The notes beneath the pieces were generated by a model that worked only from the letters and a program-made list of their open reading frames with translations, was not told the DNA's origin and searched no databases. Of a stretch of 64,000 bases of DNA, positions 748 to 58,976 are shown piece by piece. Within the stretch, counting starts at the first letter, position 1, and each line of letters begins with the position of its first letter. The stretch covers positions 13,888,001-13,952,000 of the forward strand of contig OZ024748.1 in the NCBI GenBank assembly GCA_964016885.1, in the 5' to 3' direction. This DNA is from Eledone cirrhosa. Taxonomy: Eukaryota. The position numbers and the translations under genes are program-made.

Positions 748-840
748 CAAGATGGATACAGTATGAAAATGGTTGGGCCATTACTCACCCGAGCACTCGA
801 TACTCGGTGTAGTAAAGTAAGGTCATATGAAAGAGTCACA
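748..840 (-). mobile_element. 3' tail fragment of an HHR-element family
   Basis: Minus strand tactacaccgagtatcgagtgctcgggtgagtaatggccc resembles the tails at 39181-39250 and 43081-43150; flanked by (TA)n. Confidence 0.5.
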
Positions 841-1529
841 TATATATATATATATGTGTGTGTGTGGGTGTGTGTGTGTGTGGTAGATAATAGATTAAGC
901 ATGCAATGAATTGAGTCTACCAATCTACACAAGACGAGGCTCTACATACAGACTCTGTGTGTAGAATTAATCTCAGAAATGTATTTCTTGAACAACGAGG
1001 ACACAACTAATGACACGAGAGCCACCTGCTCCCAAAATTCGATACAGATCACACGAGAGCACACCTGGAACCTCGGAGTTACGAAGCAAATCATCTTAAC
1101 CACAGAGAAATAGGAAATATTCAAATTATTCTTTGGGTTTTTTTATTTTATTTTATGTTTTATTTTCTTTTTTTTATTGTGTTGATTTTTGTGTTATGTT
1201 TTTTTCCAAAGATTTGCAAAAGATTTTCATCAGCCGTCTTTAATAAATTAGAACACGTTTTCACCTAGAAGAAGTGCTGAGAATACATTTGTGTTAATCA
1301 GATGAAAGACAGGTTGTTAGAAGAGAGAGAGAGAACGAGAAAAAAAATGGAATAGAATGCAATACTGTGATCAATATCAAGTGATTGCATAGAAGAAAAA
1401 TATATATATTTTTTATTCCTATTGCTATTGGACCGCACATTACACAGACTAACACACATACACACGTGTGTGTCTGGCCATGAAATATACTGGTGATAGA
1501 AATTATGTTACGCTTCAATGACTGGCTGC

Positions 1530-2545
1530 TGATAACAACAACAATAATAATATTAATAATGATAATACTACTAATAATTATAATGATAATACTACTCCTA
1601 CTACTACTACTACTACTAATGATGATGATGATGATAATAATAATAATAATAATAATAATAATAATAATAATAATAATAATAATAATAAAAATAATGGTGC
1701 TTTCTAGATTGAGCAATAGGGTGATAACAATTTGGGTTAAATTTTTCGATTATGGAATAATCTGGAAAACATATGCTACAGCAACAAGCATTATCTAAAG
1801 GTATAATATATGATCTTGCAGTAGTGCATGTATAGATATGGAATCTAGTATGAAGCTTTGAATGTATTATTGCCTGCTCTGCTACTACTACTACTACTAC
1901 TACTACTACTGCTGGTGACACCCAATCACCACCAGCTCTACTACTACCACTACTAGAACCAATACTACAACTACTACCACCATGACCATCACCACTAATA
2001 CCAGCATCACCACCACCACCCTACCACTACTACTAATACTACCACCACCAATACCATCCCCCACCTCCACCACTACTACCTATACTACTACTACTACTAC
2101 TACGACCATGACCACTACTACCAGCATCAAAACCACTACCACCCCCACCACCATCACTACTAATACTACCACCTCCAAGACCATCACCACCTCCACCATT
2201 ACTACCTATACCAATACTACTACAACTACTACTACATATACCCCCACCACCACCACTACCACCATGACCACCGCCGCCACTAACACTAGTATCACCACCA
2301 CCACCCCTACCACCACCGCCACTACTAATACTACCCCGAACCCCACCACTACTACCCCACCTATGATGCTCTGCCATATTATGTAACGTTATAGACGTGA
2401 TCTAAAATAAAATTATATATTTTTCCATTACCGAGTAAACAGGTAATTTTGCTATTTTATTTCCATACAAAGGTATTATTGTAGTAGTAGTAGTAGTAGT
2501 AGTAGTAGTAGTAGTAGTAGTAGTAGTAGTAGTAGTAGTAGTGTA
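1530..2545. repeat. Trinucleotide microsatellite complex (AAT/GAT/ACT/ACC/AGT)
   Basis: Directly visible; the poly-I and poly-T ORFs are translations of the repeat. Confidence 0.9.
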
Positions 2546-2689
2546 TACTCACATACATACACACATACAATCATGCATATATACACACATACATCATACG
2601 TACAACATGCTCACATACATACATACATACATACATACATACATACATACATACATACACACATACTTTCCTGTAGTCCAGCCAGACTG

Positions 2690-54921: not shown

Positions 54922-55768
54922 TTTGGCAGTATCGGTAGAGGGTTGGACGCCATGTTTGCAACATAGAGTTACGGCTCTTTATGATCTGAGCTCAAATCCC
55001 GCCGAGGTTAACTTTGCCTTTCATCCTTATGGGGTCGATAAAATAAACTACCAGTCACGCACTGGGGTCGATTTAATCGACTTTCTGCTCCCCCAAATTA
55101 CTGACCTTGTGCCTATATAAGAAACCATTATTATTTTGGCAGTATCGGTAGAGAGTTGGACGCCATGTTTTCTAGCATAGTTACGTCCCTTTACGGTCTG
55201 AGTTCAAATCCCGCCAAGGTTAACTTTGCCTTTCATCCTTACGGGGTCGATAAAATAAGTGCCAGTAAATGTACTGGATAATTGCTGGCCTTGTGCCAAA
55301 AGTAGAAACAATTATTATTATTATTATTTTCATATTGTTTACTCGATTTTTCTGTAACCCCTCCCCTACTGTCACCGCTTATTGTATTGTCCCCTAAATG
55401 TAGGCCCTTGTGGCCAATAATGAAATTATTATTATTATTACCGGCGGTGGATTGGCAGTATCGGTAGAGGGTCAGACGACATGCTTTGCAGCATAGAGTT
55501 ACGGCCATTTACGGTCCGAGTTCAAATCTTGCCGAGGTTAATTTGCCTTTCATCGATACCGGGTCGATGCAATAAAGTATCAGTAATGCACTGGGGTCGA
55601 TTTAATCGTCTTTCCTCTCTCCCCAAATTGCTGGCCTTGTGCTTCTACTAGAAATCATTATTATTATCATTATTACTATTTCATCCTTACGGGATCGATA
55701 AAATAAAGTACCAGTAATGCACTGGTGAAAATAACTGGCCTTGTGCCAAAAGTAGAAATAATTATTAC
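54922..55768 (+). mobile_element. Tandem cluster of four SINE family 1 copies
   Basis: Copies at about 54922-55132, 55136-55315, 55442-55660 and 55679-55768, separated by (ATT)n tails. Confidence 0.9.
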
Positions 55769-56334
55769 AATGTTATAATTATTAATCGTCTGTACCGTCA
55801 TGTGACGTCTGTAATGTTTTTCTTGATGTCAGCACTTGTGGCCAATAAAGAAATCATTTTATAATTATTAATTCATTATTATTATTATTATTGTTGTTGT
55901 TTTGTTATTATTAGTAATATTATATCCATTGATACAGAGATTTGTTGTTGTTTTGTTTCCTAACTGTTCTTATCTTTATCTTTCCTTGTTTTGCTTATGT
56001 ATTCGTTTTAAAAATGTAGTTATTTCTCTATGGTGTTTGAATTTCCTGTTTCATGTTTCCTTCTGACGTTGTTGTTTTATTCCTCAGGGTAAAATAGTTT
56101 TGAGTTTTTGCAGGATATTATCTTAAATATCAAATAAGCGATGTGTTAAGTTGTAATTCTTAAAAAGTCTAATCGATACTAGCATCAAATAAATTGACAT
56201 TTTCAGCGTTGTTACAGCGAATTATATCGTCTCCTTCCTTCTTGTTATATCGTATGTTGTTCACTTAATTTATTCGCTCTACAAGTAATAAAGCTGATTA
56301 CGCGTAGTACTTTCATTCTTTAAGATACTATGAC

Positions 56335-56815
56335 GAAACAGAAGACAGAAGACAGAAAATAGAAGACAGATTATATACAAGTGAGAAACACAGCAGATGA
56401 TAGAAGATATATGACAGGAGACAGTACGATTGAAGGCAGAAGACAGAAGAAAGACGGAAGATATAAGGCAGAAGACAGAAGATAGAAGAGCGTAAGCAGA
56501 AGTCAAAACACAGAAGATAGATGCCAGATTGCAATATACAGAAGGCAGATTAAATAAAAGATAGAAACAAACCAAAAGTTAGAAGAGAGAAGACAGGAGC
56601 CACAAAGACTGGAGACAGGAAGGCGGGAGACAGAGATGGAAGACGGGAGACAGAAAAGCAAAGATAGAAAAGAGAAGAAAGAAGATAAAAGATACTAGAC
56701 AGAAGAAAAAAGATGGAAGACAAAAGACAGAAGATAGAATACGGGCGACGTGGACTGAAAACAAAGGACAGATGCAAGAAAGTAGGAGACAGAAGACAAA
56801 AGGCAGAAAAAAATG
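56335..56815. repeat. Degenerate heptamer repeat (GAAGACA)n
   Basis: Directly visible. Confidence 0.75.
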
Positions 56816-58976
56816 ACTTAAGACCAACCACGAATCAACGAATCTAGCTATCAAAAGTTACTGAAAGATTTTACACAAGTATTTCTTCTTTTGACAACCA
56901 TCTTTACCGTTTTTCTCCAATAAAGATAAAAATATTAAAGTGTTACATCGCTTTGGCTGGGGAGTATAAAACATGTAATTATGTTTTAACATTCTACAAG
57001 ATTATTCATCCGTGTTGGGATTAATAATGTAAAACTTAAGAAAGAATGGTAGTAATTTATTCTGTTTTTTGGTGGGATTGTTAGCCAATTGTATTGAAAG
57101 AAGTATAACAGGTGCAGGAAAACTAATAAATTTAAGGACACAATAACATAACTTTGTCCATTCAAAAGACTTTATCTCTGAGTGAGATGATTTTACAATT
57201 TCATTGATAATTATATTGCTTAAATGTTAAGAAGGTGAGCGCAAATCCTACAATCAATTGAGTAGTTTAGATACAATTCTAATGTATTTAAAGGGGAAAT
57301 TCTATTTGCTTGAAATACCAACCAAATCTGAATAAAAATACATACACTAGTGTTAAATAAAAGGGGAACAATCACAGATAATATAATCCTATGTACTTCT
57401 CACCTAAAAAGAAATGATGAAATTACTTGAGTACAAGGGTATAAATGTATAATTTATAAGGGAGACCGCCATGAATTTTGCATTTTCCAAATCTGTTATT
57501 CATGGTGTACTTGTCACTTAGTTTCAGGACCGCACTCATAAACACACTTCTGACCAAAGAAGTCACTAGTCATGACAATCCTACCTTTTAGTTGCCAGGC
57601 CTAGTATATCTAAGGCCACATTATTTACTGTGTCTTCTTAAATCTTTTAAGACATCGGAGTATTTGAGAGATTTCGCTACTATTTATAGCTCTTTCGATG
57701 GCTCGTTTCAAATGAGTTAACTAAAGTGAAAGATTTGTGTTCAATAGGAAATTACAAGCGATTTGTGTAGTTATTCTACCGGAAGTTTATCATTTGATGT
57801 ATGGCACTTGAGAGAGGAATTTTTATTATAATAATTTCTAATAGAGCAGGAAAGAATTCTTTGGGTGAGAGAGGGAAACAGAAATGCATAAATTCCACCT
57901 CTTTCCTAGGGACATAACATAAACATTAAGGAACTTAAATGACTTCAAGTGAGTAGTAAATGAACTTCTACCTGGTCGACTCACCTACTAACATTAACAA
58001 CCAAAACTTCTCCAAAGTCAGAAACAACTGTCGTAAGATGGTAAGATAGGTTAGATAATGCAATTATAGATACACAAAAGGATGAGTTGGTCACGGCTAG
58101 AAGCCTTTCATCATAGGTATGCTCAATTAACCCTGTCCAAGGGCTAAACCACGAACAGAAGAACACGCTGTAGCTTTATTGCGTGATCTTTAAGGCGAAT
58201 GCACATAATGTGATATTAATTCCTAGCCAACAGTATATAAGCAATGAAGGAGAAGAATGTTAGGGAATAAAAAGATTCCAACTGTCATTTGAAATCCCGG
58301 TGATCTGATTCGCAAAGGATACTTTAAGAAATTGTTTGATCTGTTGGAAATAGAAGTCAAGTCAAATCATTCCATTATCAAATCACGAAACATCGCTTTA
58401 AAAATAAATTTCATGTTGGATGATCTAGGCATAGATATATAAGCAAGGACGATGGCCATGAATCCTGGGTAATGGCTGCAAGAATACAATTGCTAATAGA
58501 AGTAGTCGAAATATTATTCCACGTGTGGAGTAACATTACTCGATAGAGTGCGTAGCTCGGAGATCAGAGTCGCTACTTCTAAAAATATAATAGATCATTG
58601 ATGCGATATTACGGGCATCTGCTTAGAATGTTTAAGGACCGATTCGCTGAACAGATTTCATCGGTAAAATCGAATGGAAAGAGACCGAGGGGTGGACCCC
58701 AAACAAGAGGGTTGGATATCATGTATGAGTTCTGTCACGCCTGAGGATTTAACCGGATCAATTAGAGACAGTTGCTTCTGACACATATACACATACACAC
58801 AAACACAAACACACACACATATATATATATATATATATATATATATATATATGTAGGAGGTGAGTTTTATTGTAGTACAATAAAGCAATGCAGATATCGG
58901 ATAAGAAGCACTCTACAGTTTGTAGGACTGGAGTATACATAATATAAGATCAAAAGATGGTTAAAGGAGTTCCATG

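Follow-up and report, generated by a model that had tools for sequence, protein, structure and literature searches.

In the window analysed here, a 64,000-nt stretch of the Eledone cirrhosa genome (assembly GCA_964016885.1, contig OZ024748.1, positions 13,888,001 to 13,952,000), a first-pass annotation had noted a short word, (T/C)GAGT(A/G)C(T/C), downstream of hammerhead ribozymes. The word is one half of a bulged hairpin, and the families of repeats that could be linked are, by the proteins encoded in their longer copies, the 5′ leaders of Hydra-clade Penelope-like elements. Two such hairpins, 57–78 nt apart, are present in full-length leaders between the ribozyme and the start codon, and inserted copies stop about 6 nt before either hairpin 1 (the short end) or hairpin 2 (the long end). 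The hairpins are probably docking sites for the element's reverse transcriptase (RT) that fix two internal start points for copying. Earlier work had already described the elements and their hammerheads, the tail and internal initiation; no account of the paired hairpins or of their register to the ends was found in the literature, including passages of PMC4209133, PMC7229834 and bioRxiv 10.64898/2026.07.22.740005 (the search covered text other than subscription literature, Repbase entries, figures and supplements on bioRxiv). The hairpin is a real, conserved cis element of a known clade, apparently unpublished, and the mechanism proposed for it is likely.

The genome sample comprised 1,044 kb, made up of the window and 98 untargeted 10-kb stretches of the same 3.0-Gb genome; labels such as L031, L066 and L226 refer to further stretches or loci examined beside the window. 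Inspection of matches and flanks located all 12 sites of the first-pass annotation at the coordinates and strands claimed. Ten of them fit the word, whereas 58906 (with A before GAGT) and 41189 (GAGTCC) fit a looser form only. There are 17 occurrences of the word in the window where 7.8 ± 2.9 are expected, and 0 of 100 shuffles reach 17. Of the seven matches outside the listed ten, that at 16054 is a weak structure-model match (E 0.97) and six are chance-like. The ribozyme-sense orientation and the distance claimed at first reading held up across the genome sample: of 83 hammerhead-like motifs, 12 are followed by the word 41–97 nt downstream on the same strand, compared with none antisense downstream, none sense upstream and one antisense upstream. 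This enrichment by strand and position supports the idea of a conserved, strand-specific cis signal, most likely one for the element's own protein. Nor are the tails simply homologous throughout, as 35 of 36 family pairs align like shuffles (|z| ≤ 2.3), the sole resemblance being that of the 791 copy to the 43093 family (z 3.2). A complete hammerhead core adjoins the word only at 20839, 35079, 39381, 46674 and 58906; the 3′ half alone is retained at 39195, 40370, 43093 and 41189, the core at 31392 is decayed, and 791 and 16521 have none.

At every listed site, an RCTY lies 12–50 nt upstream and pairs with the GAGY of the word. This partner had been overlooked, and the word does not stand as a linear signal; recognition by the RT or endonuclease, one of the earlier suggestions, is retained in the sense that the signal most likely serves the element protein, but as half of a paired hairpin. 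An internal promoter, likewise suggested, is a poor fit because the two halves are separated by anything from 8 to >30 nt while their pairing persists. The structure can be written RCUC-YNN-loop-NNR-UN-GAGY-NC, in which a second arm stacks on the stem past a 2-nt bulge on the 3′ side. Of the 299 GAGTRC words in 664 kb, 52 conform to this pattern, versus 3–10 in ten shuffles and 4–12 with other bulge sizes. In a second test, sites were picked by the 3′ word and a (TA)n run 25–100 nt further on, with the 5′ strand left unused. Of 135 GAGYRCY words near (TA)n, 83 complete a 4+3-bp hairpin that has a 2-nt bulge, versus 8–19 with bulges of 0, 1, 3, 4 or 5 nt, and the same test by cluster gave 22 of 56 versus 3–5 for other bulge sizes. 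Words away from (TA)n form the 2-nt-bulge hairpin at control level (26/315).

The hairpin is recovered unaided by RNAalifold from 22 family copies, with 96% of cells pairing and two-sided changes in five of seven pairs. When this alignment was shuffled, its covariation score was reached by 0 of 500 shuffles and its pair count by 27. For 14 metagenome hairpins 1, picked by protein alone, the same program yielded two-sided changes in four of seven pairs. G-U wobbles are needed in ten clusters and A-C in two, an excess that therefore favours the sense strand. The first bulge base is U in 21 of the 22 family copies, and the G and A that follow are invariant. A bulge U is present at 91 of 109 hairpin sites versus 97 of 341 other sites, and in all 14 metagenome hairpins. 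Several variants were also observed. In the family of L085, the second lower-stem pair is swapped (GTTC/GAAC); hairpin 2 of family 3 at L038:2400–2600 (minus strand) has an arm of about 70 nt; and in L134, about 13 tandem 16-nt units corresponding to the 3′ half of hairpin 1 lie 5′ of a family A copy, possibly reflecting repeated slippage.

Longer copies of four window families (the 43093, 39381, 58906 and 46674 types) continue into Hydra-type open reading frames (ORFs), and these ORF-bearing elements carry the signal as hairpins in the leader. The four ORFs compared are 42–51% identical, and the families first described as otherwise unrelated are, where linked, diverged lineages of one clade. 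Similarly, the designation "3′ motif" is true of truncated copies, whereas the full element has two copies of the signal in its leader. The RW(R/K) motif is present in all four aligned ORFs and DKT (for DKG) in the three that are long enough; both also occur in families 4 and 1b, with 1b reading RW(I/T). Translations of L031 and L226 include a C-terminal GIY-YIG domain with the CxCx5C linker and CxxC/CxH motifs. Pfam gave no name to an endonuclease fragment. The target of insertions is (TA)n, and a hammerhead, with a variant core in family A, can be discerned at the sequence level in the pseudo-long terminal repeat (pseudo-LTR). Assignment to the Hydra clade rests on these motifs and on the hairpin common to published consensi, three of six of which have it in clean form (a coral and two sea cucumber consensi, one of these twice). 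In the available portion of the supplement of Craig et al. (2021), 22 occurrences of five bulge-plus-stem words appear; all four in the Hydra file sit in hairpins, and the 18 in the Naiad and Chlamys files have no partner by eye, although line breaks can hide matches.

Relatives were also examined in metagenomes, where 25 loci encoding proteins of 30–45% identity were chosen by protein; 22 were read, the other three being without upstream flank. All 14 intact leaders have both hairpins, five of the second hairpins having been placed by eye or from the model. Of the remaining loci, one has a direct plus an inverted copy and seven are without the leader region. Among copies in the E. cirrhosa stretches examined, none of families 1a and 41189 runs past the long end into an ORF, and the best 30 matches each for families A and 4 are ORF-less stubs. 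Extrapolation from 34 matches in 580 kb suggests on the order of 150,000 copies genome-wide. A Neptune-like Penelope element of the same genome, which has two ends of its own, gave no match to the hairpin model in window positions 8468–9560 or in the L071 pseudo-LTRs.

Each insertion has two 3′ ends, both of which face outward. For family A in untargeted DNA, 19 of 24 short ends lie 8 nt before hairpin 1 and 28 of 34 long ends lie 6 nt before hairpin 2; since the template reads TAT at both ends, both fit about −6. Short-end modes of −5 to −11 were observed in seven more families or subfamilies (1a–d, 3, 4 and 41189). End mapping gave no ends for family L242, and the L142 reference contains microsatellite. 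Hairpin 2 lies roughly 25–70 nt upstream of the start codon. For families 1b and 4, it was predicted beforehand that hairpin 2 would be found just beyond the long end. A pattern search past this end returned 262 and 59 genomic matches, respectively, and none in reversed controls. The matches go on, after 6–8 nt, into GCTC, and the prediction was borne out by hairpin 2 at all 20 loci read (five with small departures), 19 of which also have a Hydra-type ORF. The three metagenome contigs with a 3′ end all stop about 6–7 nt before a hairpin, and TA begins at −6 in nine of 14 metagenome leaders, compared with at most three at any offset from −40 to −9.

Of 146 pairs of inverted (head-to-head) arms, 115 join a long to a short end, six are long with long, two are short with short, and 23 are unclassified. 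In addition, 11 of 20 long ends of family 4 have extra (TC)n or (TATC)n that matches the family's own template, as opposed to 0 of 63 in family A and 0 of 18 in family 1b; where visible, the opposite end of such copies is (TA)n. For instance, family 4 long ends at L263–L288 have 3–27 extra TC units or 18 TATC units before (TA)n. Some of the common (TC)n(TA)n compound repeats may have arisen through such additions.

The hairpin, its duplication, the end positions and the pairing of long with short arms are established by the sequences themselves, and the following mechanism is proposed from them. In the RNA, each hairpin likely folds and probably acts as a dock for the RT of the element, and copying would start there. 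The element protein, probably as two molecules, would bind both hairpins of a single RNA, its endonuclease would nick both strands of a (TA)n run, and complementary DNA (cDNA) would be primed from each nick at a UA step located some 6 nt on the 5′ side of a hairpin. Both cDNAs would then extend toward the RNA 5′ end and join head to head, and the optional Penelope-like "tail" would be the stretch between the two starts. With less assurance, the U bulge beside G-C and A-U pairs may form a TAR-like U-A-U triple read by KR(L/M/I)RW(R/K), a basic helix that is conserved in the protein. A fuller version is put forward tentatively, as a doubtful possibility: two TAR-like arginine-sandwich hairpins would load a telomerase-related RT dimer onto a single RNA, with double priming of both target strands at two measured positions and telomerase-like stutter producing the tail, the inverted ends and some microsatellite additions, unlike integration of long interspersed nuclear elements (LINEs) or LTR elements.

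Hairpins and associated features of the window are as follows.
43078..43103, plus strand: hairpin 1 of family A (ACTC, 4-bp arm, 6-nt loop, TT bulge, GAGT, AC).
42959..43148, plus strand: entire family A stub flanked by (TA)n runs on both sides, with an inverted short-ended arm and then a direct arm; the latter includes the hammerhead 3′ half (about 43030–43058), hairpin 1 and the tail to the long end.
40355..40380, plus strand: hairpin 1 of a family A copy.
39180..39205, plus strand: hairpin 1 of a family A copy, with a TC bulge.
793..818, minus strand: hairpin 1 of a family A relative, with one U-G lower-stem pair; 5′-truncated and without a hammerhead.
16523..16549, minus strand: hairpin 1 of family 6, with a 6-bp arm and no adjoining hammerhead.
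24383..24409, plus strand: second family 6 copy, overlooked at first reading; altered after GAGT, and a clear structure-model match.
35081..35122, minus strand: hairpin 1 of family 4, with a 6-bp arm that includes two G-U pairs and an 18-nt loop; hammerhead core at 35193–35229, predicted cut near 35184.
46676..46717, minus strand: hairpin 1 of family 4; hammerhead core at 46786–46822, predicted cut near 46777.
39382..39402, minus strand: hairpin 1 of family 2; hammerhead core at 39446–39468, predicted cut near 39429.
31381..31402, plus strand: hairpin 1 of a family 2 relative, with a decayed hammerhead 5′ of the hairpin.
20822..20847, plus strand: hairpin 1 of family 1a; hammerhead from 20710, predicted cut near 20760.
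58908..58934, minus strand: hairpin 1 of family 1b, with a TA bulge; hammerhead core at 58993–59039. The inverted short-ended arm of this element has a core at 59166–59212 (plus strand) and ends before reaching the hairpin.
41191..41243, minus strand: long-armed hairpin 1 (GCTC ... TC bulge, GAGT, CC), a genuine member despite the word mismatch.
578..601, plus strand: hairpin 1 variant (GCTC ... TT, GAGC, TA), overlooked at first reading; a clear structure-model match.
16049..16091, minus strand: possible decayed hairpin, a weak model match (E 0.97).
124..165, plus strand: possible decayed hairpin, a weak model match (E 0.24).

A model built from the hairpin alignment recovers 11 of the 12 listed sites, missing the long-armed hairpin at 41189, and adds the two clear extras at 578 and 24383. 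The 578..601 hairpin is contained in an element at about 325–673, the inverted arm of which has a full hammerhead at 369–413 (minus strand); the direct arm of the same element begins at the predicted ribozyme cut site (517–540). Full copies of family A (e.g., L226:725–815) have a variant hammerhead core with U at position 3 and A at 8. The long stem II of this hammerhead contains a TATA-like word, and stubs begin within stem II, at what is possibly the transcription start. The window also contains, at 8468–9560 (plus strand), the 3′ part of the Neptune-like Penelope element, which has at least 150 copies that are 97–100% identical; full ORFs of this element (L071 and L072) are about 1,217 aa long and have a long asparagine-rich insert. 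A rhodopsin-family G-protein-coupled receptor coding region (Pfam 7tm_1) at 37055–38313 (plus strand) is divided between two overlapping frames, a possible frameshift.

Several other identities were considered for the hairpin. With Rfam covariance models, there were no matches up to E 10 on the L226:760–1010 leader, and among the matches listed for the window the only non-microsatellite one was Hammerhead_1 at 369–413, below its cut-off. A competing hairpin that uses the nucleotides following GAGY gives a good fold in some copies but is missing from families 1 and 2, and was set aside as a candidate for the conserved structure. Selenocysteine insertion sequence (SECIS) elements have an AUGA/GA quartet and an AA loop and are located in the 3′ untranslated region. 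These features are not found in the hairpin alignments, and the hairpin sits 5′ of the ORF. Helitron or Helentron ends were rejected, as the elements end in (TA)n and continue into RT ORFs; so was a splice donor, as the word is variable at its third base (GAGT, GAGC, GAAC). An NKX-type DNA site was likewise rejected, since the spacing varies while pairing persists.

A number of observations weigh against the docking proposal or limit the evidence for it. Single copies fold weakly (z −2.4 to +0.5), with the exact structure in only about half of 16, so that a protein probably stabilises the stem; in the minimum-energy fold of a family A leader, the two hairpins pair with each other instead. The 22 copies used with RNAalifold were partly selected by pairing and include one misaligned row, and hairpin 2 of the metagenome leaders was without covariation, only its invariant lower stem being predicted. 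The other three of the six published Hydra consensi are degenerate or cut short. In family 2, short ends spread from −3 to −22, and all that is left of hairpin 2 is a stem of 4 bp, located 9 nt from the end. The count of arm pairs comes from long-end-targeted loci, which biases it against short with short and not against long with long, and 23 of 146 pairs are unclassified. L310 and L311, in their hairpin 2, and the copepod consensus have a flipped or broken central pair, and the TAR-like triple is therefore not universal; family 1d is a further exception to the TAR-like letters. Finally, ORF-bearing family A copies end long in 12 of 20 cases and short in six of 20. Long-ended full copies therefore call for a jump between templates, a template that is circular or in tandem, or simple priming on read-through into (UA)n. 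A family A fold-back at L066:9300–9600 has 138 nt of RT coding sequence at its centre, which suggests a template jump. Tandem arrays made up of intact Hydra elements, with periods of about 3.5 and 6.6 kb, occur at C1:91.47–91.49 Mb, C2:51.28 Mb and C6:49.53–49.55 Mb (G000) and are candidate templates for such copies.

The same end register could be obtained if the hairpins mark RNA 3′-end formation, with a cut or stop about 6 nt before each and LINE-like priming by the RT at the resulting RNA ends. Fixed end positions and template-matched repeats would be accounted for equally well, and passages of PMC11167929 describe RNA-seq read ends at both start sites of an anole element. However, a cut before hairpin 1 would remove the template of the long end, making the pairing of long with short ends in 115 of 123 classified pairs unexpected, while cutting every leader would destroy the mRNA; internal initiation without a matching RNA end has also been seen in vitro (passages of PMC11167929). 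This explanation is regarded as unlikely. A role in single-stranded DNA, where the hairpins would guide a GIY-YIG cut of the cDNA or donor about 6 nt off and so resolve an intermediate, is less likely still. The tail has been attributed to endonuclease-mediated resolution (available text of PMC8557442), and recognition by the Drosophila virilis endonuclease depends on the tail, as cited in the passages of PMC11167929, yet the polarity of G-U over A-C (ten versus two clusters) disfavours first-strand cDNA, and the family-specific (TC)n and (TATC)n additions resemble polymerase products rather than cuts.

Alternatively, the hairpins might serve translation or transcription, through cap-independent initiation after the ribozyme cut or a downstream promoter element, with the ends as a by-product. 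The proximity of hairpin 2 to the start codon (roughly 25–70 nt) and the capless nature expected of ribozyme-cut RNA would suit such a role, which is nonetheless improbable: both ends keep one distance to the hairpins while the tail drifts in length (57–78 nt) and sequence, and the variable spacing of the halves disfavours a site in double-stranded DNA. It is very improbable that the likeness is due to chance or to functionless shared descent of the whole tail. All linked families are of one clade, and by itself the 8-letter word shows only a roughly twofold excess over chance in the window, but stem pairing, bulge size and the bulge U are retained between flanks that cannot be aligned.

Docking of the RT at the hairpins would bear on a question that has been open since Penelope-like elements were described, namely how internal start sites are chosen and why the tail is on one end only. 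The one-sided tail would be explained if hairpins tell the copying enzyme where to start, and a 25-nt hairpin fixed 6 nt from both ends opens the start-site question to simple mutagenesis. The RT is the closest mobile relative of telomerase, and an RNA anchor bears on the origin of telomerase RNA recognition. In practical terms, a portable "start here" tag for a (TA)n-targeting enzyme could aid insertion tools, and the motif allows classification of short stubs.

The elements compare closely with the Hydra clade of Craig et al. (2021; PMC8557442), as described in the text available. They have in common RW(R/K), DKT, the CxCx5C linker and the C-terminal GIY-YIG domain, together with the pseudo-LTR hammerhead, the (TA)n target, the inverted 5′-truncated arm and the optional tail. 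The published tail is 30–40 bp and is ascribed to endonuclease resolution, compared with 57–78 nt in the present elements; no hairpin is described in that available text, and the word "hairpin" is not in the main text. For the Poseidon element PAc of the green anole, passages of Frangieh et al. (2024; PMC11167929) report that two internal start sites flank the tail and that RNA about 55 nt past these sites, on their 3′ side, is required. In those passages, as in the mechanism proposed here, both target strands are nicked and extended, the tail is bounded by the starts, and a dimer is predicted. PAc differs in belonging to another clade and in having its start sites inside the ORF in an AC-rich stem-loop, with no repeated signal named in those passages.

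The bulge matches the arginine-binding geometry of the TAR RNA of HIV-1 and of 7SK by resemblance only, and no homology is claimed. In TAR, G26 pairs with C39. Its arginine sandwich has been described as A22-U23-(bulge)-G26-A27-G28 with a U23:A27-U38 triple, and the U40U41 bulge of 7SK SL1 is, like that of the present hairpin, 2 nt (Pham et al., 2018; PMC6189040, in the passages available). What is common, as far as these passages go, is a purine pair and a bulged U, then G-C and A-U pairs, the present hairpin reading R-U-N-G-A-G. In contrast, the bulge of the present hairpin is on the 3′ strand, and exceptions exist.

A further comparison is with telomerase, the top structural match of the predicted Hydra protein (mean predicted local distance difference test score, pLDDT, of 87); a PDB sequence search with the protein gave no match. 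The Hydra N-terminus superposes on telomerases from residue 1, whereas other RTs superpose only from residue 55 onward, and the part of TERT matched by this N-terminus is the TERT RNA-binding domain. Over the RT core, group II intron and DRT2 RTs tie with telomerase within 1 Z unit. Telomerase and the Hydra elements have in common an internal template start and the addition of short repeats at a fixed site. They differ in that the anchor of the Hydra elements is 3′ of the start, copying runs on, and repeat addition is sporadic.

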